A DNA stretch of 64,000 nucleotides, from NCBI GenBank assembly GCA_000996025.1, contig LBYF01000001.1, positions 3,507 to 67,506 on the forward strand. The letters run 5' to 3'. The position numbers and the translations under genes are program-made. Positions 491 through 36,545 of the stretch are shown here, piece by piece. Every line of letters begins with the position of its first letter. The first letter of the stretch is position 1. The notes beneath the pieces are model-generated. The model was not told where the DNA came from, searched no databases, and was given only the letters and a program-made list of their open reading frames with translations. This stretch comes from Parcubacteria group bacterium GW2011_GWA2_40_14. GTDB lineage: Bacteria > Patescibacteriota > Minisyncoccia > Phycocordibacterales > DATDWN01.

Positions 491-572
491 AAATATACGA
501 AATAACGAATTAAAACACGAATGGCTACGAATAATTCGTTGCAATTCGTAGACTCATTTGTTACTTCGTATA
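491..572. repeat. Family-1 palindromic repeat copy (upstream of rsmE)
   Basis: The sequence atacgaaataacgaattaaaacacgaatggctacgaataattcgttgcaattcgtagactcatttgttacttcgtatat is nearly identical to the copy at 8884. Confidence 0.75.
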
Positions 573-619
573 TTATCAGAAAATAAAAAATAGTCAAAAT
601 TGTGTTATATTAGGTAATC

Positions 620-1354
620 ATGAGACTTCATAGATTTTATGTAGACAAACCTATCACCGATGAAACATTTGATGTGAATGACAGAGACTTAATTGCCCAG
701 TGGCGGAGTGTTTTTCGCTACAATGTCGGTAGTCAAGTGGTACTTTTTGATGGTTCGGGGGTAGATTATCTTTGCATGATTACATCACTTCGCAATCTTG
801 GCGCCACTGTTTCTATTATAAAAAAGACCAAGAATGATTTTGTTCCGAGTTGTGAACTGTGGCTGTGTGTTGGAATTATAAAAAAAGATAATTTTGAGCT
901 GGTGGTGGAGAAAGCAACAGAACTTGGGGTGTTACATATCGTTCCAATACTTTGCGACAGAAGCGAGAAAAAAAATATAAATATGGAACGCTTACAAAAA
1001 ATTGCAATTGAGTCTAGCGAGCAGTCCGGCAGGGGAGATGTGCCTGTTATACACGAAATCATTAACCTTTCTATGTTACTAATGTCAAAGAGTCCCTTTG
1101 ACATTATGCCAAAGGAGAAAATAGTATTACAGCTAAATAGCCGATATATCGGTGATTTTCTTGAAAAGCAACCGCTGGAAGCGAGCAGTGGTCGCATGAC
1201 CAAGTTGGCGGTTTTTATTGGTCCGGAAGGTGGATGGAGTGATAACGAACTGAAAGATTTTGCTCTGCACAACATACCCTCTGTCTCTCTTGGCCACCAA
1301 ATCCTCCGCACCGAAACCGCATCCATCGCCGTTTCAAGTTTATTGCTTTTGTAA
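620..1354 (+). CDS. rsmE: 16S rRNA (uracil1498-N3)-methyltransferase RsmE
   Basis: The 244-aa ORF has RsmE family signatures, including the C-terminal SLGxxILRTETA motif. Confidence 0.8.
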   Translation: MRLHRFYVDKPITDETFDVNDRDLIAQWRSVFRYNVGSQVVLFDGSGVDYLCMITSLRNLGATVSIIKKTKNDFVPSCELWLCVGIIKKDNFELVVEKATELGVLHIVPILCDRSEKKNINMERLQKIAIESSEQSGRGDVPVIHEIINLSMLLMSKSPFDIMPKEKIVLQLNSRYIGDFLEKQPLEASSGRMTKLAVFIGPEGGWSDNELKDFALHNIPSVSLGHQILRTETASIAVSSLLLL

Positions 1355-1357
1355 AAA

Positions 1358-1397
1358 TAAATGTGTAAGGGTTCGCCTTACACATTTGGTTTCATTT
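1358..1397 (+). terminator. Rho-independent terminator after rsmE
   Basis: An 11-bp stem (aatgtgtaagg / ccttacacatt) is followed by a T-rich run. Confidence 0.55.
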
Positions 1398-1528
1398 GAG
1401 GAGCCAGTTATTGAATTGTGTTAATAGTAGTTGTGTCACCCAAAAGGCAATTACTGACGGTATCAAACCTATTAGAAATTGTTTTGTAATTCTCATACAA
1501 ATCTCCAGTCTCCTTTCCTATTTGCATT

Positions 1529-2425
1529 TTAACATTTTTCCAGAAATTGGAATACCAACTCGTTAGTCAGAAAAGTCTCCACATACATTCGTACTCGGAA
1601 ACGGTCAGCATCTTTGTGATGGACCAGAATATTTTCCATCTCTTTTTTTACATCCTCCTCTTTTGGCACAATATTTTCTTCTTTTGCTATTGTATTTAAT
1701 ATCACTTGCGATTTGGCTCGTTTGATTGCTGTGTCTTTCCATTCCATACGCAAATCATTTTCAGTTTTCTTTATACGTTTCAAATAGTCCTCAAATGATA
1801 TGCCGGATTTACCAATATCGTCTTTGAACTGGGCCAACATTTTCTCCATCTCGCCTTCCACGATTATTTTTGGCAGGTCAATTGTTGATTCACTCATAAT
1901 TTTTTCCAAAATCCCTATTCGTCTTTTGTCTTTCTCTGTCGTAGCGTCCGCCTTATATGTTTTATTGCTTTCGGTCTCTGTCAGCGAAATACTAGATGCG
2001 ATTTTTTTGTAATCGGTTAGCGAAACCTCCGGCATAAGGGCCGTTTTTATTTTGAATTCCAAAGGATTTCTAGGAGCCATTTTTGTAATAGATATCTCTG
2101 GTCGTCCGATTGCATCCACATGATGTTCTTCTAAAATGTTTGGATACTCTTCGGACAAGGCCATTTCTGCCGCTTCTTCCAAAATTCTCATTTCGCCAAC
2201 TTTTTGTACGAGGATAGCATCCGGAACATTTCCTTTGCGAAAACCAGCTATTTCCACAGATTCTTTCAGTCTATTGAGTGCTTTTTGTCGCATAAGCGAC
2301 ATTTTTTCAACAGTGATTGCGCCTACAATCTCCAGTTCTCTCTCGGGAAGGGAATTAAGCGTTATGTCTTTGTATCCTTTTATCATAATGTTTTCTAGTC
2401 TATATTTTTCGTGGATTTTTTGCAA
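1529..2425 (-). CDS. tig: Trigger factor (short form)
   Basis: The N-terminal ribosome-binding signature GFRKGNVP is present. At 298 aa it is shorter than the canonical trigger factor. Confidence 0.7.
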   Translation of the reverse strand: MQKIHEKYRLENIMIKGYKDITLNSLPERELEIVGAITVEKMSLMRQKALNRLKESVEIAGFRKGNVPDAILVQKVGEMRILEEAAEMALSEEYPNILEEHHVDAIGRPEISITKMAPRNPLEFKIKTALMPEVSLTDYKKIASSISLTETESNKTYKADATTEKDKRRIGILEKIMSESTIDLPKIIVEGEMEKMLAQFKDDIGKSGISFEDYLKRIKKTENDLRMEWKDTAIKRAKSQVILNTIAKEENIVPKEEDVKKEMENILVHHKDADRFRVRMYVETFLTNELVFQFLEKC

Positions 2426-2429
2426 TCTA

Positions 2430-2470
2430 AAAACTTGCTAACACTGGGTGTTAGCAAGTTTTTAGATTTA
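2430..2470. repeat. Family-6 hairpin with conserved ACACTGGGTGT loop; bidirectional terminator between tig and the upstream minus-strand gene
   Basis: The sequence gctaacactgggtgttagc is flanked by A and T runs, and the same loop recurs at 26868-26935. Confidence 0.6.
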
Positions 2471-2505
2471 GAACTGCAAACTTTTTAAATCTTTTGACTT
2501 ATCTC

Positions 2506-2772
2506 TTACTCTGCTTCTGGGCTAAGGTTCGTAGTGTTTGTGCTACTTAAGTCTGCCTCTATTGAGCCCAGGTCATCTGACGAACTCATGCTTTTTATTG
2601 TTGCCGCTTCAGAAATATCTGCTGTCGGCTCACTACCGCCCCCGACTAAATTTTGAGCTGTTTTTGATTCCTCAATTCGCTTGCCCCAGAAATATAGTCC
2701 GCCGAGGATAATCAAAGCGATGATAACGATTGTGCCCACGATAGAGCCGATTGATGATTTGTTTTCTTCCAT
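2506..2772 (-). CDS. Small membrane protein (one TM, Ser/Asp-rich tail)
   Basis: The 88-aa ORF has a hydrophobic segment IVGTIVIIALIILGGLYFW. No family was recognised. Confidence 0.35.
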   Translation of the reverse strand: MEENKSSIGSIVGTIVIIALIILGGLYFWGKRIEESKTAQNLVGGGSEPTADISEAATIKSMSSSDDLGSIEADLSSTNTTNLSPEAE

Positions 2773-2806
2773 GGTGTTTGGTTAATTTTCAATTTTTAAA
2801 CAATTT

Positions 2807-3517
2807 TTAATTTTGTACTTTTGTTTCTGTTTTCACAGTAGTAGAAACTCCTTTCAGACTACCAACTGCTTTTTCTAGAGATTTGCGAGCGCTCCCCAAA
2901 TTTTTCTCAATATCTTTCGCTATTTTAGCCAAAGCGGAGAGAGAGACTTTTGCTTGTGCTCTGGTTGTTGTTGCATTTTCTAGAGCGACTGTCGCCTCTG
3001 CAGTTGTTTTGAGACTGATAAGTAAAACTTTTGCCGCCTCAAGTGATACTTTTGCATCATTAACATATCTTTCAGCAACTAGAATATCTCCTCCGGCATT
3101 TTTTATTTTTTCAATTCTACTCTGAACTCGGACTACAAGCCCTTCTAGTCGTTCAATAGTTGCTTGAAATCTCGCATTCATCTTTTCAAAACGATTTTCC
3201 ACCCTTTCTCTTAATTTCTCTATTCTCTTTTCTTCAATTTTTCCTTTTACCTCCTCTTTTCTCTCTTTTATATCACTTTTTGCCTCTTCTCGCCTATCTT
3301 TTATTTCACCCTTAGCTTCTATTCTTATAGCTTTGACATCCGCTCTTGTTTCTGTTCGAATTTCCTTTTTACCTTCAATTAATGCTTTTAACCTTGGTAA
3401 TAATTTTTGTTTTGTTTCCACCGTTACATTTGTATCCGTATCTGTTTCTGCATACGCAAATCCTGCGCTGGATAAAACAAGCATGGCAATTAATGTTTTT
3501 AGTATTATATGTTTCAT
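2807..3517 (-). CDS. Secreted coiled-coil protein (signal peptide plus K/E-rich heptads)
   Basis: MKHIILKTLIAMLVLSSAGFAYA looks like a signal peptide, and the rest is a charged repetitive coiled-coil-like sequence. Confidence 0.5.
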   Translation of the reverse strand: MKHIILKTLIAMLVLSSAGFAYAETDTDTNVTVETKQKLLPRLKALIEGKKEIRTETRADVKAIRIEAKGEIKDRREEAKSDIKERKEEVKGKIEEKRIEKLRERVENRFEKMNARFQATIERLEGLVVRVQSRIEKIKNAGGDILVAERYVNDAKVSLEAAKVLLISLKTTAEATVALENATTTRAQAKVSLSALAKIAKDIEKNLGSARKSLEKAVGSLKGVSTTVKTETKVQN

Positions 3518-3656
3518 TTGTTTTGTTATTATAATTTATTACCAGAACTTATCTGGCAGTAGCTCCATTATACAGTAAAAAGCCACTGTCTACAATAAGC
3601 AAGGGCTTTCATAACAAAAGAGGACTAAAGCCCTATTTTACTTGATAGTCTAGTTT

Positions 3657-4241
3657 TTACTCAAAATTCTTTAGATAGATATCTTTGTATCTTTGTTTAC
3701 ATTCCTCGATAACCTTGATAGCTTCATCTTTATCAAAAAAACCCTTGGTAATACCTGCACCAGGTTTTTTTAGGTATTTAATGTGTTCCCAGTAATAAGT
3801 GGTTTCTTTTTTGAATTGTTCGCCCAGGTCTTCAACTGACTGGATGTGGTCACTTCTTCGATCATCTGCAAGCACGGCGATTATTTTGTCGTCAACTTCT
3901 CCAGCATCTTCAAACTTCATAACTCCAATGATTCGAGCTTCAACTAAACACCCAGGTACAAGTGGTTCCATAACATTTACAATTTCAACATCAAGAGGAT
4001 CATTATCATAGTCCCAAGTTTGTGGGATTGCTCCGTAAGCAAAAGGGCAAGCAAGAGAGGAGTAACCAACCCGGTCAAGTTTTAACTGTCCTGATTCGGT
4101 TACGGTCTCGTATTTGTTTATAGTACCAGAATTAATCTCAACAATTGCGTTGACTCTATCTGATTGTTCGTCTACAAAAGCCGGTAGGACATGCAACAGA
4201 TTGAGCATGTATTTTGAAGGTTTGTGATTTATGTTTGCCAT
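3657..4241 (-). CDS. ppa: Inorganic pyrophosphatase (family I)
   Basis: The 194-aa ORF carries PPase-like motifs (PLDVEIV, IIAVLADD). Confidence 0.85.
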   Translation of the reverse strand: MANINHKPSKYMLNLLHVLPAFVDEQSDRVNAIVEINSGTINKYETVTESGQLKLDRVGYSSLACPFAYGAIPQTWDYDNDPLDVEIVNVMEPLVPGCLVEARIIGVMKFEDAGEVDDKIIAVLADDRRSDHIQSVEDLGEQFKKETTYYWEHIKYLKKPGAGITKGFFDKDEAIKVIEECKQRYKDIYLKNFE

Positions 4242-4255
4242 ACTGATTGATTATA

Positions 4256-5491: not shown

Positions 5492-5500
5492 ACAAATAAG

Positions 5501-5540
5501 TTTATAAAGTTATAAAGTTTGTAAAGTTCATAAAGCTAAT
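5501..5540. repeat. Family-2 repeat (GTAAAGTTATAAAGTT words), partial copy upstream of nusA
   Basis: The sequence gtttataaagttataaagtttgtaaagttcataaagc recurs at 37634, 38802 and 56755. Confidence 0.6.
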
Positions 5541-5624
5541 TTTGATAAAAAGAATGTCCGCTCCCATGAGCGAACTTCAATGCACCTATACTATCATAAG
5601 CTCTATAGTCTTGTCAACAAAACA

Positions 5625-6914: not shown

Positions 6915-7015
6915 AATATTTTGATATACTAGATACGAAGTAACGAATAAGTTAACGAATTGCAACGAATAGAATCCATTCGTAGCCATTCGTGTTTTAA
7001 TTCGTTACTTCGTAT
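6915..7015. repeat. Family-1 palindromic repeat (TACGAA/TTCGTA words); abuts the pilB start codon
   Basis: This copy is the reverse complement of the copies at 491-572 and 8884-8967, and it ends ...cgttacttcgtatATG. Confidence 0.75.
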
Positions 7016-8785
7016 ATGCATATTGAAGAAAAACAATTAAAAGATTTTATTTTGGACTCGGGGCTTGTCTCGCGGGCTGACTTAACTCTGGCTGAAAAAG
7101 AAGGTCTGGAAAAGGGAGTAAGCTTGGGCAAAGTTTTGGTGAGCAAAGGAAAGCTTTCAGAAGATGATTTACGACGGATGCAGGCCTATATTCTGGGTAT
7201 TCCTTTTGTGGACCTCAAGGGCGAGAAATTGCCATTTGAAGTTCTCTCTCTTATTCCGGAGCCGATTGCTCGCAATCACAATATTGTAGCTTTCAAGAAA
7301 ACAGACTCTAGTTTGGAGGTAGCTATGTTAGACACCGAGGATTTGACTGCCATTGATTTTATCAAAAAGAAAGTAGGCCTCCGAATTTTACCTCGCTTGA
7401 CCGATGCCGACTCTGTCAAAAGCGCAATCCTCCAATATCAAAAGTCTCTCAAGGCGGAGTTTGGCGATTTAATTGCCAAGGAGGTTTCGTCACTTGAATT
7501 GAATCCGCTGAAACGAAGTGAAGGCGATGAAAACGAGGTCATAACTACGACAGAAGATTTGAAAAAAATGGCCGATGATGTGCCTGTGGTGCGCATAGTG
7601 GATACATTGCTGAAGCATGCCATTTTGCAAAACGCATCCGACATTCACATAGAGCCGCAGGAGCTGGAACTTCTGGTTCGCTATCGTATTGATGGCTTGC
7701 TTCACGATGCCATGCTCCTGCCGAAAAATGTGGGAGCATCCATTGCCGCTCGTATCAAAGTTTTGGCCATGCTCAAGCTTGATGAAAAGCGTTTGCCACA
7801 GGACGGCAGATTCAAAATTGACATGAATGGCGAGAAAGTTTCTTTTCGTGTTTCCACCTTGCCGACATATTATGGTGAGAAAACAGTTATGCGACTCCTC
7901 CGCGAAAATGTTTCCGGCTTTACACTGGAATCCCTCGGTTTTCATGGTGTGGGACTGGAGCGTATTCACAGAGCCGTCCAATCCACGACCGGCATGATAC
8001 TGGCTACCGGCCCGACTGGTTCTGGAAAAACCACCACTTTGTATACTATTTTGGATATTTTAAATACTGTTGATGTCAATATTTCCACAATTGAAGACCC
8101 AATAGAATATCAGATGAAGCGTATTAACCAAACTCAAGTTCGTCCAGAGATAGGATTAACATTTGCAAACGGATTGCGCACTTTGGTTCGCCAAGACCCG
8201 GATATTATTATGGTCGGTGAAATTCGTGACAATGAAACGGCTAATCTGGCTATAAATGCGTCGCTCACCGGTCATGTCGTTCTCTCAACACTTCATACAA
8301 ACTCTGCCGCCGGAGCCGTCCCTCGCTTGATAGATATGAAAGTGGAACCGTTTCTTATTGTTTCCACTGTTAATGTTATTATTGCCCAGCGTCTTATCCG
8401 AAAACTTGGAGATGGAAAAGAAAAATATTTTTTGACCAAAGCCGAGCTTCTAACTTTGGGCAAGAGAGTTAATTTAGACAAAGTCTTAGCTACTTTGAAG
8501 GAAGAAAAAATTGTAGGTCAAAGCGATGTTTGGGAACAAGTTCCTTTTTGGCGCCTGAAAAAGAATGTTTCATCCGAAGACGGTTTCTCCGGACGCATTG
8601 GCATTCACGAAATATTGAAAGTTTCTTTGCCAATAAAAGATATTATTCTCAAAGACGGCACCTCGGACGCAATCCAAAAACAAGCTGAAAGCGAAGGTAT
8701 GCTGACTATGTTTGAGGACGGCATCTTCAAAGCGGTACAAGGTGTAACCACCATTGAGGAAGTTCTTAGGGTTATCTCGGAATAG
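7016..8785 (+). CDS. pilB: Type IV pilus / type II secretion assembly ATPase PilB/GspE
   Basis: The ORF has an N-terminal GspE-N domain, Walker A GPTGSGKTTT, and Asp and His boxes. Confidence 0.9.
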   Translation: MHIEEKQLKDFILDSGLVSRADLTLAEKEGLEKGVSLGKVLVSKGKLSEDDLRRMQAYILGIPFVDLKGEKLPFEVLSLIPEPIARNHNIVAFKKTDSSLEVAMLDTEDLTAIDFIKKKVGLRILPRLTDADSVKSAILQYQKSLKAEFGDLIAKEVSSLELNPLKRSEGDENEVITTTEDLKKMADDVPVVRIVDTLLKHAILQNASDIHIEPQELELLVRYRIDGLLHDAMLLPKNVGASIAARIKVLAMLKLDEKRLPQDGRFKIDMNGEKVSFRVSTLPTYYGEKTVMRLLRENVSGFTLESLGFHGVGLERIHRAVQSTTGMILATGPTGSGKTTTLYTILDILNTVDVNISTIEDPIEYQMKRINQTQVRPEIGLTFANGLRTLVRQDPDIIMVGEIRDNETANLAINASLTGHVVLSTLHTNSAAGAVPRLIDMKVEPFLIVSTVNVIIAQRLIRKLGDGKEKYFLTKAELLTLGKRVNLDKVLATLKEEKIVGQSDVWEQVPFWRLKKNVSSEDGFSGRIGIHEILKVSLPIKDIILKDGTSDAIQKQAESEGMLTMFEDGIFKAVQGVTTIEEVLRVISE

Positions 8786-8790: not shown

Positions 8791-8826
8791 GACTTCCAAA
8801 TCTGGCGCATTTCGTTGTTGGAAAGC
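8791..8826. repeat. Family-5 motif (GACTTCCAAATCTGGCG...GTTGTTGGA) immediately after the pilB stop
   Basis: The same words follow the tuf stop at 31221. Confidence 0.6.
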
Positions 8827-8883
8827 AAAAAATAAATCTTATACACAATTTTTGTGAAAATAAAATAAAATTTTGGTACAATA

Positions 8884-8967
8884 AACATACGAAATAACGA
8901 ATTAAAACACGAATGGCTACGGATTATTCGTTGCAATTCGTAGACCCATTCGTTACTTCGTATATTT
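8884..8967. repeat. Family-1 palindromic repeat; abuts the pilC start codon
   Basis: The copy ends ...cgttacttcgtatatttATG. Confidence 0.75.
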
Positions 8968-10182: not shown

Positions 10183-10643
10183 AATTAAATTATAAATCTG
10201 GGTTTACAATTTTTGAATTTCTCATAGCCATTTCTATCATGGCTCTTCTTGTGGCCATAGTATTTTCTGGTTTTATAAACTTGAGGAAACATCAGGCCTT
10301 AAAATTGGATACGGAAACTATCGCGGGAATATTACGAGAAGCTAGGAGTGAAACTCTGGCATCCAAAAATGGAACGCGATATGGAGTGCATTTCTCGGCT
10401 ACAAAAGTTACTCTCTTTGCCGGTTCTGTGTACAATCCAAGCGACCCCAATAACAAAGATTTTATGTTGAATGCAAGTGATGCAGTTTTTAACATCACTC
10501 TTGCCGGTGGAGGAAGCGATGTTATCTTTAATCGTTTGACCGGAGAAACATCGCAAAATGGCGTGATTACTCTTTCCTCCCCATCCACAGCACAAATAAA
10601 AACTGTTACAGTATACAAAACAGGAGTAGTTGAAAGTAATTAG
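10179..10643 (+). CDS. Prepilin-type N-terminal cleavage/methylation domain pseudopilin
   Basis: The N-terminus KSGFTIFEFLIAISIMALL is a class III signal (G|FTxxE plus a hydrophobic helix). Confidence 0.7.
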   Translation: MKLNYKSGFTIFEFLIAISIMALLVAIVFSGFINLRKHQALKLDTETIAGILREARSETLASKNGTRYGVHFSATKVTLFAGSVYNPSDPNNKDFMLNASDAVFNITLAGGGSDVIFNRLTGETSQNGVITLSSPSTAQIKTVTVYKTGVVESN

Positions 10644-10669
10644 GGAGTCTATAATACAATTTATATACA

Positions 10670-11158
10670 ATGTGGTCATACAATAAAAAAAACAATCGCG
10701 GTATGGCTCTAATAGAAATAGTCATAGGGGCCTCTATCATATCGGTCGGCATTTTGGCCATTTCTACCGCTTACAATACATATGTACAGCATGCTTTTGC
10801 AAACGAGAAAAATATCCAGGCGGCCTATATTTTGGAGGAGGGATTGGAAGCGGTAACACTCCTGCGTGACAAGGGGTGGAATGCAAATATCAAACTGCTT
10901 TCCACCACAACCACATATTATTTGACCTTGGTCCCGACCTACTGGGCTACCACAACCACACCACAATATATTGATGGAACATTTCTACGAAATATTGCTA
11001 TTACCGATGTAAAGCGCGACCTAAACGACCGTATCGCCACCGCAGGCACATATGACCCAAACACAAAACTAGTCACGGCGACAGTTTCCTATTTCCAAGG
11101 ACACGGCACGACCACGCGCTCCCTTTCAACTTATATAGCTAACATATATAACAACTGA
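10670..11158 (+). CDS. Pseudopilin (prepilin-type N-terminus)
   Basis: The N-terminus reads RGMALIEIVIGASIISVGILAI. Confidence 0.65.
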   Translation: MWSYNKKNNRGMALIEIVIGASIISVGILAISTAYNTYVQHAFANEKNIQAAYILEEGLEAVTLLRDKGWNANIKLLSTTTTYYLTLVPTYWATTTTPQYIDGTFLRNIAITDVKRDLNDRIATAGTYDPNTKLVTATVSYFQGHGTTTRSLSTYIANIYNN

Positions 11159-11160: not shown

Positions 11161-11670
11161 ATGAAAGTCCTTACATACAAATCAGGATATTCGCTTGTGG
11201 AAATGCTTATATATGTCTCTATTTTATCGGTCATTTCGTTTTTAATGGTTAGTACGGTGCTCTCTTTTATCGGCTCGTATAGACAGCTTGTGGCCTTGCG
11301 TATCGTGGAGCATTCGGGCATAGATGCTATGGAAAAAATGACTCGTGATATTCGGGCCGGTACGACAATTGATACAGTGAACAGCACATTTGGAACAAAT
11401 CCGGGTGTTTTGACTTTGATTACCACAGCAAACAATGTTTCCACTACCACAAAATTTTATCTTCAAAACGGTATTGTCAAAGTAGACATAAATGGAAGTT
11501 ATTTCGGTCCCATAACTTCCTCCACTGCATCCACAACCAGTATCGTATTTACAAAATTAAACAGCTCTATTTCTAACGCAGTAAAAATTGACATGACTGT
11601 ATCGGCTACAGTTGGCACGACAAGTAGAACGAAAACCTATCACTCCACGGTTATTTTAAAAGGACAATAG
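11161..11670 (+). CDS. Pseudopilin (prepilin-type N-terminus)
   Basis: The N-terminus reads KSGYSLVEMLIYVSILSVISFL. Confidence 0.65.
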   Translation: MKVLTYKSGYSLVEMLIYVSILSVISFLMVSTVLSFIGSYRQLVALRIVEHSGIDAMEKMTRDIRAGTTIDTVNSTFGTNPGVLTLITTANNVSTTTKFYLQNGIVKVDINGSYFGPITSSTASTTSIVFTKLNSSISNAVKIDMTVSATVGTTSRTKTYHSTVILKGQ

Positions 11671-11701
11671 GGAAAAATTTCTAATTTCTAATTTTTAAAT
11701 A

Positions 11702-15042: not shown

Positions 15043-15327
15043 ATGTCTATAGTCACAATCAAAAATAAATATCAAATTGTTATTCCTCAAAGTGTTCGCA
15101 AACAAGTTGGGGTTGTTGTCGGTGACTTTCTGGAAGCTACAGTTGAAAAAGGCAAGATTGTCTTTCAGCCAAAATCCCTAGTTGATCGAGGTATTGCGCA
15201 GAGTTTAAAAGAATTTAAACAAGGACATTCTTTTGGTCCATTTGCCACTGCTAATGAAGTAATAGCGTCGCTTAAAGGTCAATTGAAAAAACGCGCTCTA
15301 GAGAAACATAAAAAAGTTTTGAAATAA
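15043..15327 (+). CDS. AbrB/MazE/SpoVT-type swapped-hairpin DNA-binding protein (orphan antitoxin-like regulator)
   Basis: KNKYQIVIPQSVRKQVGVVVGDFLE is typical of the SpoVT_AbrB domain. No toxin partner is adjacent. Confidence 0.6.
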   Translation: MSIVTIKNKYQIVIPQSVRKQVGVVVGDFLEATVEKGKIVFQPKSLVDRGIAQSLKEFKQGHSFGPFATANEVIASLKGQLKKRALEKHKKVLK

Positions 15328-20443: not shown

Positions 20444-21046
20444 TTATTTTGCTACACTGTTAAAATTCTCCTCAACCTTCTTCCAATTCAGATTTGCAAA
20501 AAAATCTTCAACGTATTGTTTCTTGCCAGATGGTTGGTAGTCGGCGACAAAGGCGTGTTCCCACATATCTAAAGCGAGTATCGGAGTGCATCCAACGAGC
20601 TGGCCGAGCTGATGGTCTTCAATGTAGGCGTTCAGTAGTCTGTGTTCTTTTGTATCTAGGTAGAGCATTGCCCAGCCTACTCCGCGAGTCATGGCGATTG
20701 ACTTGAACCTCGCAAGCCAAGTGTCAAATGAACCCCATAGATAGACAATTGATTTATATAATTCTCCGTCTGGTGAAATGGGAGATGGTCCGTCGGACAG
20801 AGAATCAAAATAAACTTCATGATTTCGCATACCGTCATATTCAAATCCAAACCTTCTCTGTGTTTCGTTGATAATGATAATATATGTATCCGTCTGGCCG
20901 GATTTTGTGAACTCATCGATTTTTTCCAAAGCAAAATTGGTATGTTTGACATATCCCGCATAGAGCTTCAAATGTTCCTCAATTGTCTTGCTCGAAACTC
21001 CTTTTAATTCGGGGATATTAAATTTTTTCTCTTCAAATTGCATCAT
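20444..21046 (-). CDS. sodA: Fe/Mn superoxide dismutase
   Basis: The DMWEHAF motif and the N-terminal helical hairpin H-x-x-H are present. Confidence 0.9.
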   Translation of the reverse strand: MMQFEEKKFNIPELKGVSSKTIEEHLKLYAGYVKHTNFALEKIDEFTKSGQTDTYIIIINETQRRFGFEYDGMRNHEVYFDSLSDGPSPISPDGELYKSIVYLWGSFDTWLARFKSIAMTRGVGWAMLYLDTKEHRLLNAYIEDHQLGQLVGCTPILALDMWEHAFVADYQPSGKKQYVEDFFANLNWKKVEENFNSVAK

Positions 21047-21094
21047 AGTAGTTTTTAAATTTTAAATTAAAAATTTTCCTATATACTATAGCAT

Positions 21095-22332: not shown

Positions 22333-22445
22333 AGTGTTTACGACTTCCAAATTTGGCGAACTCCTTGCTAAAATCTGAAAAATTCTCGTCACCGTACATG
22401 AGTACGACTCCTCGCTTTTTTCAGATTTTCACTTCGGATTTCATC
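22333..22445. repeat. Family-5 element forming the rpmB 5' leader (CGCCAAATTTGGAAGTC motif 10 nt upstream of the ATG)
   Basis: It shares a GTCACCGTAC..GTACG hairpin core and CCAAATTTGG terminal words with the copies at 31221 and 43411. Confidence 0.65.
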
Positions 22446-23843: not shown

Positions 23844-23936
23844 TCGAGACACGAGTACCGAGATACGAGAAACGAAGAAAATAAATGCATTCATAATCGT
23901 AATTCGGGTCTCGTAACTCTTAACTCTATCAAAAAG
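23844..23936. repeat. Family-3 palindromic repeat (CGTAACTCT words) between rpsL and rpsG
   Basis: The arms are cgagacacgagtaccgagatacgag...cgtaattcgggtctcgtaactcttaactc, and the copy ends 10 nt before the ATG. Confidence 0.7.
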
Positions 23937-24620: not shown

Positions 24621-24715
24621 CAAGACCTAGTCATATATTATAGATTGCTCAAAAAGGTGTTTTAGTATATAGTCTTATCTATTCTTATCCGAGAGGATTT
24701 TTTATTTTATAAACG

Positions 24716-30016: not shown

Positions 30017-31222
30017 ATGGCAGAATCAGCAAAATTTGATAGAAGCAAGCCCCACATCAATGTGGGTACTATTGGTCACGTTGACCACGGCAAGACTACA
30101 TTAACAGCAGCTATTTTGGCTGTGCTTGGAAGAGCTGGCGCGGGATATTCATCCAGACTAAAAGGAGTTGACCAAATCGACTCCGCACCTGAAGAAAAAG
30201 CTCGTGGAATCACCATCGCTTTATCCCACAACGAGTATGAGACACCTGCCCGTCACTATGCTCACGTGGATGCTCCTGGTCACGCCGACTATATTAAAAA
30301 CATGATTACTGGCGCCGCACAGATGGACGGCGCAGTCCTTGTGGTTGCCGCAACAGACGGTGTCATGCCTCAAACACGAGAGCATGTTCTCCTTGCAAAA
30401 CAAGTTGGTGTGCCAAAGATAATCGTATTTCTAAACAAATGCGATATGGTTCCAGACAAAGAGCTTATTGATTTGGTGGAGGAAGAAGTTCGAGAACTTC
30501 TAACAAAACAAGGTTTTGATGGCGCGGGAGCTCCTGTAATCCGAGGTTCAGGATTGAAAGCTCTTGAGTCAAAAGACAATACAGACGAATGGGCAATGAA
30601 AGTTCTGGACTTGGCTAGTGCATTGGACACATATTTCCCAATTCCACAGCGAGATTTGGACAAGCCATTCCTCATGCCAGTTGAAGACATTTTCTCTATT
30701 GAAGGACGAGGTACTGTAGTAACAGGCCGTATTGAAAGAGGCGTTGTTAAAGTTGGCGAGGAAATAGAATGTATTGGATTGAAAGACACACAGAAATATA
30801 CAGTTACTGGTATTGAAATGTTCAACAAGTCTCTTGACCAAGGTCAGGCAGGAGACAACGCTGGAATCTTGCTCCGTGGTGCCAAGAAAGAAGAAATTCA
30901 CCGAGGTCAGGTGCTGTCAAAGCCAAAGTCTGTTACTCCTCACACAGAATTTACAGCAGAGGTTTATATCTTGAAGAAAGAAGAAGGTGGACGACACACA
31001 CCTTTCTTTACTGGTTACAAACCGCAGTTTTACATCCGAACAACAGATGTTACAGGTGACGTTACTCTAAACGAAGGTGTTGAGATGGTCATGCCTGGAG
31101 ATACAGTCACTTTCAAAGTAAAGCTCGTTGCTCCGGTTGCGCTTGAAGACAATACGCGATTTGCTATACGCGAGGGAGGAAAGACTGTTGGCGCTGGGGT
31201 CGTTACCAAGATCATAGCGTAA
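30017..31222 (+). CDS. tuf: Elongation factor Tu
   Basis: The G1 motif [10 protein letters not shown] and the rest of the 401-aa ORF are canonical EF-Tu. Confidence 0.95.
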
Positions 31223-31340
31223 CTTCCAAATTCGGCGTACTGCGTTGTTGGACTTCAAAATTTGATTGTCACCGTACGACGAGTACGGCTCCAATCAAAT
31301 TCCTCGTCCGCCTAGCATCGCATCTAAATTTGAAAGTTAG
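31221..31340. repeat. Family-5 element after tuf (AACTTCCAAATTCGGCG ... GTCACCGTACGACGAGTACGGCTCC ... AAATTTGAAAGTT)
   Basis: It has CCAAAT-type terminal inverted repeats and a central hairpin, and there are about nine related copies. Confidence 0.7.
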
Positions 31341-31740: not shown

Positions 31741-31805
31741 CTTACGATATCTCGTAATAAATACACCTATCATACGCTATAGCGTATGATAGGTGTATAG
31801 TGAAC
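31741..31805. repeat. Family-7 perfect palindromes (cttacgatatctcgtaa; atacacctatcatacgctatagcgtatgataggtgtat)
   Basis: The second palindrome is nearly identical to the copy at 40262. Confidence 0.6.
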
Positions 31806-31925: not shown

Positions 31926-32291
31926 TTGATATATAAAACTGTCGGAAAAGTTTATCGTCCTATTTTGAAAGAATATGTTACTTTTAATTCTAAAGGTTTT
32001 TATCACTTACGATACGATACTCACGAGAAAGCGAGAAGGGTGAAAGAACAAATATACAAATTTAATTTGCTTCCACTTATTATTCCCGCAATTAAAAACG
32101 CAAAAAATGTGTTTGATTATAAAAAAGAGCAGTATTCCAAACTCCTTGGCAAATATTACGAAATATGGGAACTTCGAGAAACTGTTGGAGGGAAAAACCC
32201 AACTTCGCTATCTGTGATTTTGAGAAGGATCGGGAACGGAAATATTACATTTCTTAGTGTGTATGACAGAAAACCAAAAATGAAAAAATAG
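31926..32291 (+). CDS. Hypothetical protein; the C-terminal half weakly resembles RelE/ParE-fold toxins
   Basis: YEIWELRETVGG...SVILRRIGNGNITFLSVYDRK echoes the RelE pattern (ELR..YRIIY..V.IL.IGHRK). The match is weak. Confidence 0.3.
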   Translation: MIYKTVGKVYRPILKEYVTFNSKGFYHLRYDTHEKARRVKEQIYKFNLLPLIIPAIKNAKNVFDYKKEQYSKLLGKYYEIWELRETVGGKNPTSLSVILRRIGNGNITFLSVYDRKPKMKK

Positions 32292-32435
32292 AAACAAAAA
32301 AGCCATCATGGGGATGGTATTTTTGTGACGTCCACTTTCGGCGTAGAGTAACCTCAAGCCGAATAAAGCTTGCGCTTGATGGACGCTAGAGGCAGTATAT
32401 ATGGAAAGGCATTAAAAGTCAATGAATGAATAAAT

Positions 32436-32464
32436 TTGACCCCATAACTATTCTCTGCTAGTAT
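32436..32464 (+). promoter_or_regulatory. Sigma70-type promoter for the S10 operon (TTGACC - 17 nt - TAGTAT)
   Basis: The hexamer spacing is exact, and the promoter lies 12 nt upstream of rpsJ. Confidence 0.55.
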
Positions 32465-32475
32465 CTTTCTTACAT

Positions 32476-32898
32476 ATGGTAACGAAAGAAGCTCCTACAA
32501 AGAAAGTGGCGGGAAAGACGGCGGTCAAAAAGACTGCGGCTAAAGTTGTTGCCAAACCTAAAGTTGCAAAGGCGCCCGCAAAGCAAGAAACAGTTTCCAA
32601 ACTGCGTATTCGGGTACAGGCCTACGAATACAAGATTCTTGATTTGTCAGTCAAGCAAATCATAGATACGGCTATTCGTTATGATGCTGTAGTGCAAGGA
32701 CCTATTCCTCTTCCGACAAATATAAAAAAATACACTGTCAATCGTTCGGCATTTATTTTTAAAAACGCCCGCGAGCAGTTTGAAATGCGAATTCACAAAC
32801 GACTGATTGATATTTTGAACCCTACTCCAAAGATAATGGAGGCACTGACGAATCTCTCACTTCCGAGTGGTGTAAATATTGATGTAAAAATTATTTAA
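32476..32898 (+). CDS. rpsJ: 30S ribosomal protein S10 with a 40-aa Lys/Ala-rich N-terminal extension
   Basis: The S10 core begins KLRIRVQAYEYKILD. The N-terminus KKVAGKTAVKKTAAKVVAKPKVAKAPAK is histone H1-like. Confidence 0.9.
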   Translation: MVTKEAPTKKVAGKTAVKKTAAKVVAKPKVAKAPAKQETVSKLRIRVQAYEYKILDLSVKQIIDTAIRYDAVVQGPIPLPTNIKKYTVNRSAFIFKNAREQFEMRIHKRLIDILNPTPKIMEALTNLSLPSGVNIDVKII

Positions 32899-33019
32899 CC
32901 GTATGGTTGAATAAAAAGCTGATATCTGCTAATGTATCTCAATCCCATTAGAACTAACGGATTTATAAAATCCTATTTCTAACGGGATAAATCGCCGTTA
33001 CGGCATTTTTATTTTTCTT

Positions 33020-33655
33020 ATGACTAAATTTATATTAGGCACAAAAATAAATATGACCCAAATCTTTGACGAGGCGGGGATTGTTCATCCAGTAACTGCC
33101 ATCAAGGCGGGACCGATGATTGTCACACAGGTTAAGTCTGAAAAAACAGATGGTTATTCTGCCATCCAAGTCGGTTTTGGCGCACGCAAAGCAAAAAATA
33201 TAAATAAACCTTTGAGAGGTCATATTAAAGATAATAATTTTATGTATCTTCGCGAATTTCGTACAGATGATACACAGGGTAACCCTGTGTATACTGTCGG
33301 CGATGCGATTGACATTTCCACTTTTTCTGAAGGTGATAAAGTTACTGTTTCCAGTATTTCAAAAGGCAAAGGTTTTCAAGGTGTTGTAAAGCGACACGGT
33401 TTTAAAGGGGGTCCTCGTTCACACGGACAAAAGCATTCCGAACGCGAGCCGGGCTCTATAGGTGGCGGTGGTCGTGACGGCGGACGTGTGGCAAAAGGAA
33501 AAAGAATGGCAGGTCGTATGGGCGGAGACAGAATCACTTCAAAAGGTTTGACGATAGTTTCTGTCAAACCAGAAACAGGCGAGCTTTTTATTCGTGGAGC
33601 GGTGCCGGGAAGAAGGGGAACATTAATAGAGATAAGAGATACGAGTAAAGAGTAA
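33020..33655 (+). CDS. rplC: 50S ribosomal protein L3
   Basis: MTKFILGTKINMTQIFDEAG begins a typical L3. The last 7 codons are encoded by the family-3 repeat arm. Confidence 0.9.
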   Translation: MTKFILGTKINMTQIFDEAGIVHPVTAIKAGPMIVTQVKSEKTDGYSAIQVGFGARKAKNINKPLRGHIKDNNFMYLREFRTDDTQGNPVYTVGDAIDISTFSEGDKVTVSSISKGKGFQGVVKRHGFKGGPRSHGQKHSEREPGSIGGGGRDGGRVAKGKRMAGRMGGDRITSKGLTIVSVKPETGELFIRGAVPGRRGTLIEIRDTSKE

Positions 33656-33710
33656 CGGATTTGAATTATTCGTAACTCGTATCTCGATACTCGTAACTCT
33701 ATTCAAAATT
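33640..33710. repeat. Family-3 palindromic repeat overlapping the rplC 3' end
   Basis: The arms are agagataagagatacgagtaaagagtaacg / cgtaactcgtatctcgatactcgtaactct, and the copy ends at the rplD ATG. Confidence 0.75.
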
Positions 33711-34427
33711 ATGGAAGGAACAATTTACAACCAAAAAGGAAAGGAATCAGGAAAAATCTCCCTGCCGGAAGCAGTTTTTGGTTTGAAGTGGAATGCCGAC
33801 CTTGTGCATCAGGTTGTTGTTTCTATGGAATCAAGCGCCCGTACACCTGTGGCTCATGCAAAAAACCGTGGGGATGTAAGAGGCGGAGGTAAAAAGCCAT
33901 GGAAGCAAAAAGGCACTGGTCGTGCTCGCCATGGTTCAATCCGTTCTCCCCTCTGGAGACATGGAGGTGTTACGCACGGCCCAACAAATCTGAAAAATTT
34001 TGATAGAAAAATAAACAAGAAAATGAAAGCCAAAGCGCTTTACACAATCCTTTCCAAAAAATTTAAAGATAATCAGGTAGTTTTTGTTGATAAGATTGAA
34101 TTTTCTTCTATAAAAACAAAATTTGCGAAAGAAGTGATGGATTCACTGTTTGATAAAGCTTCAAAAAAGAAAAACAATGCAATTCTTCTTACAATTCCAA
34201 AGAAAGATAAAAACGTGGAAAAAAGTTTCAGTAATTTTGGCAATCTAAAAGTGGATGAAATTCGAAACATTAGTCCGATTGATTTGATGAAATATAAATA
34301 TGTTGCTATCGTTGATCCAGAAAAAGGTCTACCACAAATTTCTAATAAAATCGAGGTAAGAGTAAAGAGTAAAGAGTTACGAAAAATCCAAAATTCAGAT
34401 TCTAAACTCGATACTCATAACTCGTAA
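33711..34427 (+). CDS. rplD: 50S ribosomal protein L4 with a repeat-encoded C-terminal tail
   Basis: The L4 core is followed by 25 aa (VRVKSKELRKIQNSDSKLDTHNS) encoded by a family-3 repeat. Confidence 0.9.
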   Translation: MEGTIYNQKGKESGKISLPEAVFGLKWNADLVHQVVVSMESSARTPVAHAKNRGDVRGGGKKPWKQKGTGRARHGSIRSPLWRHGGVTHGPTNLKNFDRKINKKMKAKALYTILSKKFKDNQVVFVDKIEFSSIKTKFAKEVMDSLFDKASKKKNNAILLTIPKKDKNVEKSFSNFGNLKVDEIRNISPIDLMKYKYVAIVDPEKGLPQISNKIEVRVKSKELRKIQNSDSKLDTHNS

Positions 34428-34438
34428 CTCTACCCAAT
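34355..34438. repeat. Family-3 palindromic repeat overlapping the rplD 3' end
   Basis: The copy reads gagtaaagagtaaagagttacg...cgatactcataactcgtaactct. Confidence 0.7.
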
Positions 34439-34717
34439 ATGAATGATCTGACACATATTTTAATAAGACCGCACATTACCGAGAAAGCAACAATATCGGC
34501 GGAGTCTTCAGTCTATGTTTTTGAAATAGATGCTCGTACCACAAAAGCTATAGTGAAAAAAGCATTTGTAGAAAAATACAAAATCACTCCGCTAAAAATC
34601 AGAACGGTTACTATTCCAGCCAAGCAAGTTTTTGTCCGAGGCAAGAGAGGGACAAAGGCCAGTTACAAAAAGGCCTACATTTATTTAAAGAAAGGAACTA
34701 AGGTAGAAAATTTATAG
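34439..34717 (+). CDS. rplW: 50S ribosomal protein L23
   Basis: The 92-aa ORF reads ...ITEKAT....VFEID. Confidence 0.85.
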   Translation: MNDLTHILIRPHITEKATISAESSVYVFEIDARTTKAIVKKAFVEKYKITPLKIRTVTIPAKQVFVRGKRGTKASYKKAYIYLKKGTKVENL

Positions 34718-34772
34718 GAATAATAAAGCCGCGCTAAAAGGACGGTTGCGCGACATGATTTCGCTAAATCAC

Positions 34773-35615
34773 ATGAAAAGATATAAACCAACAACAAAAT
34801 CCCGCCGACAAATGACAACTATTTCATTTGGGGATTTTGTGACAACAAACGAGCCGGAGAAATCGTTAACGCACGGTTTCCGAAGACAAATGGGACGAAA
34901 CCATCACGGCAAAGTAACAACTCGTCACAAAGGAGGTGGTCACAAAAGACTCTTCCGAGAGATTGATTTTAAATACGACAAAATAAATGTTCCGTACACT
35001 ATAAAAACAGTAGAGTATGACCCAAACCGCTCTGGCTTTATTGGCTTGGCACAGTATAAAGATGGTGAGAAAAGATACGTTCTTCTTCCTCGTGGAGTAA
35101 AAGTGGGCGATATCCTAGTGACTTCGGAGACAGCAGAAGTAAAAGTTGGAAACAGGCTACCTCTCCGTAACATCACTATCGGCACATTTGTTTACAATGT
35201 AGAAGTCAAGCCAAAAGGTGGCGCAAAAATGGCTCGTTCTGCAGGAAACTTTGTGGAGGTCATTGCAAAGGACGCCGGTTATGTGGACATCAAACTTCCT
35301 TCTACTGAAATCCGCAAAGTGTTGGACACAGCATGGGCATCAATTGGAGATGTTTCAAATCAGGAAAACCGACTGGTCAATCTCGGCAAAGCCGGCCGTT
35401 CACGATGGCTTGGCATACGCCCAACTGTTCGTGGTACGGCCATGAACCCAGTTGACCACCCACACGGAGGAGGTGAAGGTCGCCAAGGTCGCGGCCGCAG
35501 ACGAGCAATCTCCATCTACGGTAAGGGAACAGGAAAGGGTCAGAAGTCCCGAACTCCAAAGAAGTACTCCAATAAATTCATCGTCTCACGAAGAAAAGTT
35601 GGAAAAAGAAAGTAA
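34773..35615 (+). CDS. rplB: 50S ribosomal protein L2
   Basis: MKRYKPTTKSRRQMT...GGGHKR...HPHGGGEG are L2 signatures. The start was moved to the internal ATG. Confidence 0.9.
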   Translation: MKRYKPTTKSRRQMTTISFGDFVTTNEPEKSLTHGFRRQMGRNHHGKVTTRHKGGGHKRLFREIDFKYDKINVPYTIKTVEYDPNRSGFIGLAQYKDGEKRYVLLPRGVKVGDILVTSETAEVKVGNRLPLRNITIGTFVYNVEVKPKGGAKMARSAGNFVEVIAKDAGYVDIKLPSTEIRKVLDTAWASIGDVSNQENRLVNLGKAGRSRWLGIRPTVRGTAMNPVDHPHGGGEGRQGRGRRRAISIYGKGTGKGQKSRTPKKYSNKFIVSRRKVGKRK

Positions 35616-35644
35616 AAATGATATAGTTGGTTGAGGAGGGACAC

Positions 35645-35893
35645 ATGAGTCTAGAAGAGAGAGAGAGCTTAGAGACAATCGCCAGTCAATTAGGAAAAGA
35701 ATTGGTCGGAGTTATTCCGGGCGTTTGGGGCACCAGTCTTACTGCAAGGCCTGTAAAAGAGCCAGAGTTAAAGCTTAAAGTGATTTGTACCGAGGAAGCT
35801 AAACAAAAAGTTCTTCAAAAATACGGCGACGATAGTTACCGAGGTCATAAACTTTATTTTCAAATTTCAGAACAAGGTCCTCGATTTGCGTAA
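35645..35893 (+). CDS. Hypothetical 82-aa protein inserted between rplB and rpsS, with a strong SD (GAGGAGGG) and its own terminator
   Basis: This is an ORF call. It has an SD 6 nt upstream of the ATG and is followed by a GC hairpin plus T-run. No family was recognised. Confidence 0.5.
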   Translation: MSLEERESLETIASQLGKELVGVIPGVWGTSLTARPVKEPELKLKVICTEEAKQKVLQKYGDDSYRGHKLYFQISEQGPRFA

Positions 35894-35905
35894 CCATAAT
35901 TTTCT

Positions 35906-35936
35906 CCAGGGCGGTCCAGGCGACCGCCCTTTTTCA
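35906..35936 (+). terminator. Rho-independent terminator (gggcggtc caggc gaccgccc plus a T-run)
   Basis: The GC-rich stem is unusual in this AT-rich context. Confidence 0.7.
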
Positions 35937-35965
35937 TTTGACAATATATAGTATATTATATAGTA
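35937..35965 (+). promoter_or_regulatory. Internal sigma70-type promoter ahead of rpsS (TTGACA - 17 nt - TAGTAT)
   Basis: The hexamers and spacing are a perfect consensus, directly after the terminator. Confidence 0.55.
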
Positions 35966-36055
35966 TGTAGCCCAAGTAAAGAGCCCATTACCTCTTATAC
36001 GATTTGTTTGCGGTAGTCGACAGAATACCACTAACAAAGTGGTTTTTAATTTGTT

Positions 36056-36100
36056 TTTTTATTCGTATCCATTCGTGTTTTAATTCGTTATTTCGTATTT
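36056..36100. repeat. Family-1 repeat half-copy abutting the rpsS ATG
   Basis: The sequence is attcgtatccattcgtgttttaattcgttatttcgtatttATG. Confidence 0.65.
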
Positions 36101-36454
36101 ATGACAAGGTCATCAAAAAAAGGTCCATATGTAGATGAACGAGTTCTCAAGAAAATTGAGGGCAAAAAGCCACTTGAAACAGGGGTTATTAAAACGTGGT
36201 CAAGAGCTTGTGTCATATCACCAGAAATGGTCGGTTTTAATTTTGGTGTTCACAATGGCAGAACTCATCTGGAAGTTCTTGTCTCCGAAGACATGGTCGG
36301 ACACCGTCTGGGTGAATTTTCTCCAACTAAAAAGTTTATAAAACACGGAGGAAAGATGCAGAAAGAGCAAGAGCAGAAAGCAAAGGAAGGCGAGATTGCC
36401 GCCGCACAGTCTGCAAAGGCAGTGACCGCTGAACCAGCAGGAGCAAAAAAATAA
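36101..36454 (+). CDS. rpsS: 30S ribosomal protein S19 with a 24-aa K/Q/A-rich C-terminal extension
   Basis: [13 protein letters not shown]...GHRLGEF is the S19 core. Confidence 0.9.
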
Positions 36455-36465
36455 CCGCGATACAA

Positions 36466-36545
36466 ATATGCGAATACATACGAATAAAACGAATAGAATA
36501 CAAGAAATGGAATTAATTTTCGTATCATTCGCATAAATTCGTATA
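36466..36545. repeat. Degenerate family-1 repeat upstream of rplV
   Basis: The tacgaata / attcgcata words are arranged palindromically. Confidence 0.5.

Follow-up and report, generated by a model that had tools for sequence, protein, structure and literature searches.

Word-array repeats of at least four families in the stop-to-start junctions of ribosomal-protein operons of a Parcubacteria bacterium

We analysed a stretch of 64,000 nucleotides from Parcubacteria group bacterium GW2011_GWA2_40_14 (contig LBYF01000001.1, positions 3,507 to 67,506 of the forward strand), called the window throughout, in which a preliminary description had pointed to a palindromic repeat of TACGAA and TTCGTA words ending at the start codons of pilB, pilC and rpsS. 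This repeat, here called family 1, belongs to a set of at least four word-array families carried by a subset of Parcubacteria. The elements occupy the junctions between the stop codon of one gene and the start codon of the next, above all in ribosomal-protein operons, and their outer ends are flush with these codons; their unit is an arm of about 38 nt built of four copies of a word of 5-7 nt, and two inverted arms make a palindrome of about 80 nt. They behave like REP/REPIN repeats, with many copies per genome, likeness of the copies within a genome, a patchy presence and different families at one and the same junction. The reading that we favour, to which we give slightly less than an even chance, is that they are dispersed repeats of a REP/REPIN-like or MIRU-like kind, lodged in stop-to-start junctions, co-transcribed and hence serving as the leader of the downstream gene. 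The host, from a group of ultra-small bacteria living in groundwater, is a Parcubacteria/Zambryskibacteria-type bacterium of the Candidate Phyla Radiation (CPR), nearly without Shine-Dalgarno motifs; the S3 protein of the window is identical to that of Parcubacteria group bacterium GW2011_GWF2_39_8b and another window protein is labelled Zambryskibacteria. No 16S rRNA gene was found in the window or on any fetched locus.

All five family-1 copies of the preliminary description are present, with the following positions in the window (elements with no assigned strand are called unstranded):

F1a, 494-571, unstranded: family-1 doublet, an inverted A-type arm and a B-type arm, with the rsmE ATG (620) 48 nt downstream
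F1b, 6933-7015, unstranded: family-1 doublet, flipped relative to F1a and F1c, its TTCGTAT end at 7015 and the pilB ATG at 7016
F1c, 8887-8963, unstranded: family-1 doublet, 94% identical to F1a, with the pilC ATG (8968) 4 nt on
F1d, 36061-36098, plus strand: single right arm of 38 nt with four ATTCGT words, the rpsS ATG (36101) following 2 nt on
F1e, 36465-36547, unstranded: diverged family-1 doublet between the rpsS stop (36454) and the rplV ATG (36564)

The repeat finder and the palindrome scan group all five sites as one family, whose shared sequence consists of ACGAA words followed by TTCGT words, and the spaced pair TTCGT-N5-TTCGT occurs six times in the window against 0.16 expected, well in excess of chance. 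Four of the copies are palindromes of about 80 nt, as had been described, but F1d is only a 38-nt half copy, and the start first given for F1b (6915) was 18 nt too early. From the last word, TTCGTAT, to the ATG the gap is 0 nt at pilB, 4 nt at pilC, 2 nt at rpsS, 16 nt at rplV and 48 nt at rsmE, so that the repeat does terminate at the starts of pilB, pilC and rpsS (the identities of these three genes and of rsmE being those given by Pfam). The lack of a Shine-Dalgarno sequence at the same three genes is likewise correct, yet it is a genome-wide trait, since a GGAG-like motif at -4 to -22 precedes only about 4 of 80 genes. F1e represents a diverged subfamily with the outer repeats GCGATAC/GTATCG, which is found again at the S19-L22 (rpsS-rplV) junction of two related loci, as a full copy in L254 and as a left half in L011. 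Promoter-like boxes flank F1a on both sides, one of them lying between the element and the rsmE ATG, and a promoter-like GTGAAA-17-TACAAT (8854-8882) is placed just 5' of F1c; in the rpsS leader, the order is a terminator (35908-35930), a promoter-like site (35938-35966), a small hairpin with a T-run and then F1d. Folded as RNA, the doublets are predicted to form long imperfect hairpins of -15 to -35 kcal/mol, with z-scores of -3.5 to -9.2.

The family-1 arm reads ATTCGT-AGCM-ATTCGT-N6-ATTCGT-TAYT-TCGTAT, with words 10, 12 and 10 bp apart, or about one helical turn, and it occurs singly and, in a few cases, in tandem as well as in palindromes. Using a pattern of three family-1 words, we scanned metagenome contigs and collected at least 133 unique arms from more than 100 independent contigs; all arm counts given here are among the matches listed. 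The first word, which the search pattern left free, is an exact ATTCGT in 91 of the 127 arms with enough flank, and the 5' boundary is sharp, the sequence information falling to zero just upstream of this word. Half arms number 82, against 42 arms that belong to palindromes. The TTCGTAT end lies at -2 to +10 nt from an ATG opening an open reading frame (ORF) in 59 of the 133 arms, with peaks at -2, 0, 2 and 3 nt, and at 20-62 nt in another 15, the remainder being mostly distal arms of palindromes, contig ends and short ORFs; the enrichment near start codons that the preliminary description had proposed to look for is therefore real. Among the half arms with usable flanks, 39 of 59 end -2 to +6 nt from an ATG and 11 of 59 end at most 2 nt from a stop codon of the opposite strand. 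The inner end of the arm was within 6 nt of an outward-reading ATG in 2 of 59 cases, at distances that, where an ATG was found, ranged from 4 to 48 nt; because inner ends are rarely near an ATG and their distances are scattered, the flush fit with a gene boundary is peculiar to the outer end. The downstream genes recur across genomes, with six ABC ATPases, five EF-G-type GTPases, four each of S7, L33 and RecR, three ScpB, two KsgA and two EF-Ts.

In several genomes the fusA arm sits 3' of a conserved TTGCAA-N14-TGTGTATATT promoter and then a small T-run hairpin. Since the arm is downstream of a promoter at fusA in those genomes, and of a terminator and a promoter-like site at rpsS in the window, it lies in the transcribed leader. 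The fusA leader was also seen to be of interest in itself (24655-24715 in the window; L133, L140, L166 and L218 elsewhere): a conserved extended -10 promoter is followed by a 5-bp hairpin and T-run resembling an attenuator, and in other genomes a family-1 arm is placed between this hairpin and the ATG, where the window has only 12 nt.

A looser pattern applied to species-representative genomes returned at least 124 arrays. Among the matches listed, ATTCGT(G) arrays, often palindromic, come from several CPR classes, Bacteroidota, Planctomycetota and other phyla, and 17 of the 124 end within 20 nt of a start codon. ATTCGTG/CACGAAT arrays were observed at several loci per genome (L012-L131) in Chitinophagales, Ferruginibacter, Planctomycetota, KSB1, Nitrospirota and others, some of them just 5' of housekeeping genes (def, ispF, dut, lon and rplI); their kinship with family 1 is not established.

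The other families of the window are built in the same manner from different words. Family 2 has CGAG / CTCG..AACTCTA words with a period of 9 nt and is present in six copies; family 3 has AAAGTT/AACTTT words, also with a 9-nt period, in three doublets and one half copy; family 4 has AAAATG/CATTTT words with a period of about 7 nt, in three copies that are doublets of 117 nt and in one solo end of 21 nt:

F2a, 23844-23927, unstranded: family-2 doublet filling the rpsL-rpsG junction
F2b, 33625-33701, unstranded: family 2, rplC-rplD junction, with the rplC stop within the left arm
F2c, 34350-34432, unstranded: family 2, rplD-rplW junction, the element encoding the last 25 codons of rplD
F2d, 36884-36967, unstranded: family 2, rplV-rpsC junction, read through by rplV
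F2e, 39251-39327, unstranded: family 2, rplN-rplX junction, the true rplX ATG being at 39336
F2f, 39545-39628, unstranded: family 2, rplX-rplE junction
F3a, 5499-5535, minus strand: single family-3 arm with AACTTT words on the minus strand, the nusA ATG (5491, minus strand) following 7 nt on
F3b, 37634-37715, unstranded: family-3 doublet, rpsC-rplP junction, ATG 6 nt on
F3c, 38793-38872, unstranded: family 3, rpsQ-rplN junction, ATG 6 nt on; L011 has a family-3 left half there
F3d, 56759-56842, unstranded: family 3, infC-rpmI junction (minus-strand genes), with the rpmI ATG (56752) 6 nt on
F4a, 42222-42338, unstranded: family-4 doublet of 117 nt, rpsN-rpsH junction, ATG 7 nt on
F4b, 42741-42857, unstranded: family 4, rpsH-rplF junction, positional orthologue of L011 14550-14682
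F4c, 44479-44595, unstranded: family 4, rpsE-rplO junction, positional orthologue of L011 16226-16341
Family-4 solo end, 43888-43908, plus strand: ATG-proximal end of 21 nt, TTACATTTTTAATTTATTATC, before the rpsE ATG (43909) and including the rplR stop

In total, the window contains at least four word-array families with 18 elements, which precede rsmE, nusA, pilB, pilC, rpsG, rplD, rplW, rpsS, rplV, rpsC, rplP, rplN, rplX, rplE, rpsH, rplF, rplO and rpmI. Fourteen of the 18 are thus placed before ribosomal-protein genes, and an element is found at 14 of about 25 genes of this kind against 4 of about 55 others. Regions of exact word chains number 17 in the window and 2-6 in its shuffles. The gap between element and ATG is specific to each family (6-9 nt in family 2, 6-7 nt in family 3 and 7 nt in family 4), and the opposite end of the operon copies lies at or within the upstream stop codon.

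Four of the family-2 copies are translated by the upstream ORF, giving tails of 9-25 residues on L3, L4, L22 and L24 that keep the same frame relative to the 9-nt words. These tails are charged (33625-33655, 34350-34427, 36884-36962 and 39545-39602; IEIRDTSKE, IEVRVKSKELRK..., ...IENRVPRNEK... and VEARGTRKETRK...). Mechanical ORF calling starts rplX (39288 versus the true 39336) and rplV (36546 versus the true 36564) inside repeats; the true ATGs lie beyond the elements, since the N-termini are conserved among homologues. Shorter word repeats were also seen before further genes (TTTCTAA twice, AATTTAAA, GAATA four times and ACAAT; 11660-11701, 20990-21094, 38496-38580 and 10636-10715), TTTCTAA arrays being present in L011 too, and the vocabulary is therefore wider than four families.

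The window was then compared with loci of related genomes. The contigs of the same species (L001-L008) have the same layout, whereas relatives with an S3 protein 85-90% identical fall in two groups, L011 and L254 with many word arrays, and L010, L251, L252 and L253 in which the same operon has junctions of 5-20 nt and no word arrays. Over the syntenic 20 kb, we counted 6 regions of word chains in the window, 7 in L011 and 13 in L254, against 1-3 in each of the four others. Shine-Dalgarno motifs are lacking in the relatives regardless of the presence of elements. The preliminary description had reasoned that a link with translation start would be refuted by relatives devoid of the element at conserved gene boundaries yet expressing normally, and in sequence terms L010, L251, L252 and L253 are just such relatives, element-free and equally devoid of Shine-Dalgarno motifs. 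For the same reason we rejected the idea that the elements are a Shine-Dalgarno substitute required by the lineage.

Where elements are present, the family at a given junction may differ between genomes. The L22-S3 junction has family 2 in the window, a family-3 right half in L254 and a family-4 right half in L011; the S3-L16 junction has family 3 in the window, a full family-4 copy in L011 and an ACGAAT half in L254; and the S12-S7 junction has family 2 in the window and a family-1 arm in five other genomes. At S8-L6 and S5-L15, the window and L011 share family 4. Arms made of the complementary words (ACGAAT, AAAGT) also stand directly before ATGs in L011 and L254, for example at L16-L29 in L011. 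Carriage by phages was considered and rejected, as the family-1 pattern had no match in 2.9 million viral contigs; a family-3-like pattern that does occur in viral contigs, including giant-virus bins, corresponds to AT-rich tandem repeats that we judged unrelated.

Alignments of these loci show much stronger conservation in the families than in neutral spacers. When the window is aligned with L011, the S8-L6 and S5-L15 spacers have 81-82% identity over their whole length, against 42-55% at the third codon positions of the flanking genes, and element-free syntenic spacers of the same two genomes are 43-53% identical, about the shuffled baseline of 55%. The S12-S7 arms of five genomes are 87-97% identical against 38-61% at S7 third positions, a comparison biased by the search pattern. 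The identity of family-4 cores is 85-96% within the window and 80-83% within L011, versus 68-77% between the two genomes; since copies are closer within a genome than to their positional orthologues, concerted evolution or a recent spread within the genome is implied. Because of these spacer and family-4 comparisons, we consider that the consensus of a family is under constraint and that its copies are homogenised within each genome.

It is the primary sequence that is conserved and not base pairing. In family 2 only the words are invariant and the spacers are unpaired, and compensatory changes were seen at 0 of 30 predicted pairs in family 4 and at 2 of 18 in family 2. The antisense fold is more stable than the sense fold in 12 of 16 window elements and in 8 of 12 metagenome doublets among the matches listed, and the window elements have 38 G-U pairs in antisense against 18 in sense. 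A selected sense-strand RNA hairpin is thus unsupported, given the few compensatory changes and the better antisense folds. None of the elements matched Rfam at gathering scores or at E<=1, with the exception of spurious matches to miRNA hairpins, and structured cis-regulatory RNAs of the Rfam type differ from them in having compensatory support.

Several explanations of these features were weighed. The elements could form a dedicated, Shine-Dalgarno-independent initiation module, the G-poor arm of about 40 nt 5' of the AUG being a landing pad for the 30S subunit or for a multi-domain RNA-binding protein, possibly an S1-like protein with one OB domain per word; in a doublet, the pad would stay covered by the left arm until translation of the upstream cistron, which would couple the two genes. 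We regard this as a live rival but rather unlikely, in spite of the tight, family-specific distances to the ATG, the arm within the transcribed leader of fusA (other genomes) and rpsS (window), the lack of Shine-Dalgarno motifs in the lineage, the enrichment of elements before translation genes with recurrence before orthologous ones, and the solo ATG-proximal end of family 4 kept before rpsE; a hairpin weaker in sense than in antisense would also suit an accessible leader. The arms may further be likened to the omega leader of tobacco mosaic virus and the epsilon enhancer of T7 gene 10, which are G-poor, Shine-Dalgarno-independent enhancer leaders with short direct repeats upstream of the start, although these are single viral leaders and not genome-wide families. 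What tells against such a module is that relatives with the same operon do without the elements while being equally Shine-Dalgarno-less, that arms of complementary words are also found directly before ATGs in L011 and L254, and that 11 of the 59 listed half arms abut stop and not start codons. These three points also limit the initiation role suggested in the preliminary description, which the positional bias towards start codons and the place of an arm in the leader do support. In addition, four or more unrelated word sets would require several recognisers or none, and F1a is 48 nt from its ATG with a promoter-like box between. A wider proposal, that Parcubacteria use a small vocabulary of portable leader modules instead of Shine-Dalgarno sequences, is in our opinion unlikely: the four-word arrays would be read by a dedicated trans factor on the ribosome or mRNA, recruiting ribosomes and coupling cistrons in the highest-expressed operons, and the palindrome would be a switch exposing the module only when the upstream gene is translated. 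A sigma-70 promoter within the arm, giving a leaderless mRNA, was rejected, as the ends of families 1 and 2 do not fit a TAnnnT box 6-7 nt from the ATG; some copies of families 3 and 4 do fit, inconsistently, in a promoter scan that is noisy in AT-rich DNA.

If the arms act as double-stranded DNA, they might be operator-like arrays for a host DNA-binding protein (a regulator, a nucleoid protein or a roadblock), each word being one contact and the palindrome accommodating two protomers. The conservation of primary sequence in both arms without compensatory change, the half sites in both orientations, the family-1 spacing of 10, 12 and 10 bp, close to the helical turn, and the position of F1a upstream of a promoter-like box and not in a leader are all in keeping with this, and the window encodes a protein with four tandem XRE-type helix-turn-helix (HTH) domains inserted in the ribosomal-protein cluster. 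However, the four-HTH family is too rare, with 23 clusters in 5.8 billion proteins and no homologue outside this species on 1.7 Mb of fetched loci, whereas family-1 arms are abundant in both collection scans (at least 133 and at least 124 matches); this protein (40878-41912) was accordingly rejected as a general reader of the four-word arrays, other arm-bearing loci having no homologue of it. Moreover, words repeated every 9 nt (families 2 and 3) or about every 7 nt (family 4) are out of helical phase, only family 1 being phased, and a position inside operons and flush with codons would be unusual for an operator, an explanation we find improbable. Less probable still is that the palindromes are processing or stabilising hairpins of the RNA, cleaved by an RNase III-type enzyme that separates cistrons or makes short-leader mRNAs, as at the sites of T7 early mRNA, or protecting the 3' end of the upstream mRNA in the manner of REP sequences. 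The doublets do fold as long imperfect hairpins of the stability given above (z down to -9), they bridge stop and start codons in polycistronic operons, and a 6x6 internal loop is kept in family-1 doublets across genomes. But most of the listed family-1 copies elsewhere are single arms, which are unable to form the hairpin, the mismatches favour the antisense strand as measured both by G-U pairs and by fold stability, compensatory changes are those few already counted (0/30 and 2/18), and several upstream ORFs are translated straight through the stem. The processing or standby hairpin put forward in the preliminary description has, on the same grounds of predominant single arms, better antisense folds and scarce compensatory change, gained no support. 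The hairpins between cistrons of T7, related to one another and just 5' of the next start, are comparable in position, but they are RNA sites conserved in structure, by contrast with elements that lack covariation and are commonly single arms.

Under the dispersed-repeat reading that we prefer, the elements would be co-transcribed with their neighbours and would therefore make up the whole leader of the downstream cistron. They may be tolerated in the junctions because the lineage appears to initiate, without Shine-Dalgarno sequences, on any A/U-rich leader. The stem of a doublet would draw the upstream stop and the downstream ATG together, and translational coupling could thereby survive the insertion; ATG-proximal ends would be favoured for retention, the downstream gene having come to use them as its working initiation region. 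The constancy of the words may be maintained by a putative sequence-specific trans factor, either a transposase- or recombinase-like enzyme or a host protein.

A number of observations weigh against this reading. Pfam found no transposase or RAYT-like gene among the window ORFs, a weak argument as the window is part of a genome, and no target-site duplication is seen at F1a, F1b and F1c, whose flanks have no direct repeat as long as 3 nt in common. The arm is an array of direct repeats with no internal palindrome, unlike the hairpin of a REP unit. No vector for the spread is evident, since the family-1 pattern is absent from the viral contigs. A pattern closer in appearance to function than to random insertion is given by the 14 of 18 elements that precede ribosomal-protein genes and by the recurrence of the same downstream genes (S7, EF-G, L33, RecR, ScpB, KsgA and an ABC ATPase) across genomes in the matches listed; the half arms listed there are also biased about 3.5:1 to the orientation that abuts the ATG. 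Arm pairs flanking a transposase gene were not noticed in the fetched loci, in which no systematic search for them was made.

Compared with known systems, the elements have much in common with the REP and BIME sequences of Proteobacteria and with REPINs, the REP doublets kept up by RAYT (Y1 HUH) transposases: they are short, dispersed extragenic repeats in many copies, a genome has several families of them, they are found singly or as inverted pairs able to form hairpins, and they are placed between co-transcribed genes, homogenised within the genome, vertically persistent and patchily distributed. They differ in that a REP unit is a small hairpin with a conserved GTAG and not a direct array of four words, in that no RAYT was seen among the ORFs of the window, itself part of a genome, and in that their ends are flush with codons and they are concentrated in CPR ribosomal-protein operons. 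The mycobacterial MIRU are likewise repeats of 40-100 nt located exactly between the cistrons of operons, with ends that overlap or abut stop and start, and have been proposed to preserve translational coupling; they are, however, tandem direct units in one orientation with small bridging ORFs, as opposed to inverted doublets and single arms in both orientations, among which upstream read-through is regular only in family 2 (four copies). Miniature inverted-repeat transposable elements of the Correia, ERIC and RUP type resemble ours as palindromic non-autonomous repeats of about 80-150 nt, co-transcribed with their neighbours and able to alter expression, but those have terminal inverted repeats, target duplications (e.g. 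TA) and a parent insertion sequence. None of these was found here, no systematic search being made for a parent element, and the ends of F1a, F1b and F1c in particular are not flanked by a target-site duplication. TIGR arrays, also known from CPR genomes, offer a likeness in their short periodic repeats, some of them palindromic, and consist of long tandem 36-nt guide units with variable dual spacers beside a Nop-domain Tas gene (PMC12045711). The TIGR-Tas identity was rejected, the elements being isolated units of about 40-117 nt among housekeeping genes, in a window where Pfam found no Nop-domain Tas gene. Full-text searches of the library at hand gave no description of these elements, and the word sequences used as queries matched only primers; the elements are apparently undescribed.

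Other features of the window were recorded. Two perfect palindromes of 38 nt, ATACACCTATCAYACGCTATAGCGTRTGATAGGTGTAT, 95% identical to each other, are located at 31761-31798 (tuf-rpsJ) and at 40272-40309 (just after rplE); close to the second, numerous public contigs of this species break off, and the inverted duplication that makes up contig L001, with its joint at this place, is probably an assembly artefact. The ribosomal-protein cluster has fixed gaps for 'cargo' genes: in the window, 40395-41912 holds an ORF of no known function and the four-HTH XRE protein between rplE and rpsN, while in relatives (L009, L011, L251-L254) the L5-S14/S8 and L2-S19 gaps hold a DksA-type zinc finger, a response regulator, toxin genes or a reverse transcriptase resembling those of diversity-generating retroelements, with bAvd, and the S10-L3 gap of L009 holds a gene of the tubulin/FtsZ family. 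A motif of 39 nt, ACTTCCAAATYYGGCG.A.T.CGTTGTTGGA, of weak predicted structure, is found at 8792-8830, 22343-22381 and 31222-31260, directly after the pilB and tuf stops and once near the rpmB start. After secY, 46408-47022 encodes a PaaX_M (Cas2-like) protein of 204 aa, with homologues on five fetched loci (L011, L074, L109, L176 and L220), too few to judge co-occurrence; L009 and L010, relatives without elements, have an unrelated gene at this position. Genes of toxin-antitoxin type are dense in 47864-60295 (MNT/HepT, RelB/HigB-like, AbiEii, ParE and PemK), and a MazE-like gene is present at 15043-15327. A tmRNA gene, recognised by Rfam with 76.9 bits and not called by ARAGORN, adjoins smpB (61444-61842 and 61920-62363, both on the minus strand).

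For about one in five genes of the window, and about half of its ribosomal-protein genes, the whole upstream region is a conserved repeat, in what would be a new, word-array variant of REP/REPIN-like or MIRU-like repeats. Whether selfish or functional, such repeats break assemblies, lengthen predicted proteins, as with the tails of L3, L4, L22 and L24, and mislead the calling of starts, as for rplX and rplV; their conserved words also provide a handle for finding the factor that recognises them. If the repeats are selfish, even the most constrained operons of a streamlined genome are open to colonisation by mobile or self-homogenising DNA, and initiation without Shine-Dalgarno sequences would be what allows it to be tolerated. 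A functional role would instead make them a new class of intercistronic control element, in a radiation (the CPR) that accounts for a large part of bacterial diversity and is poorly understood.

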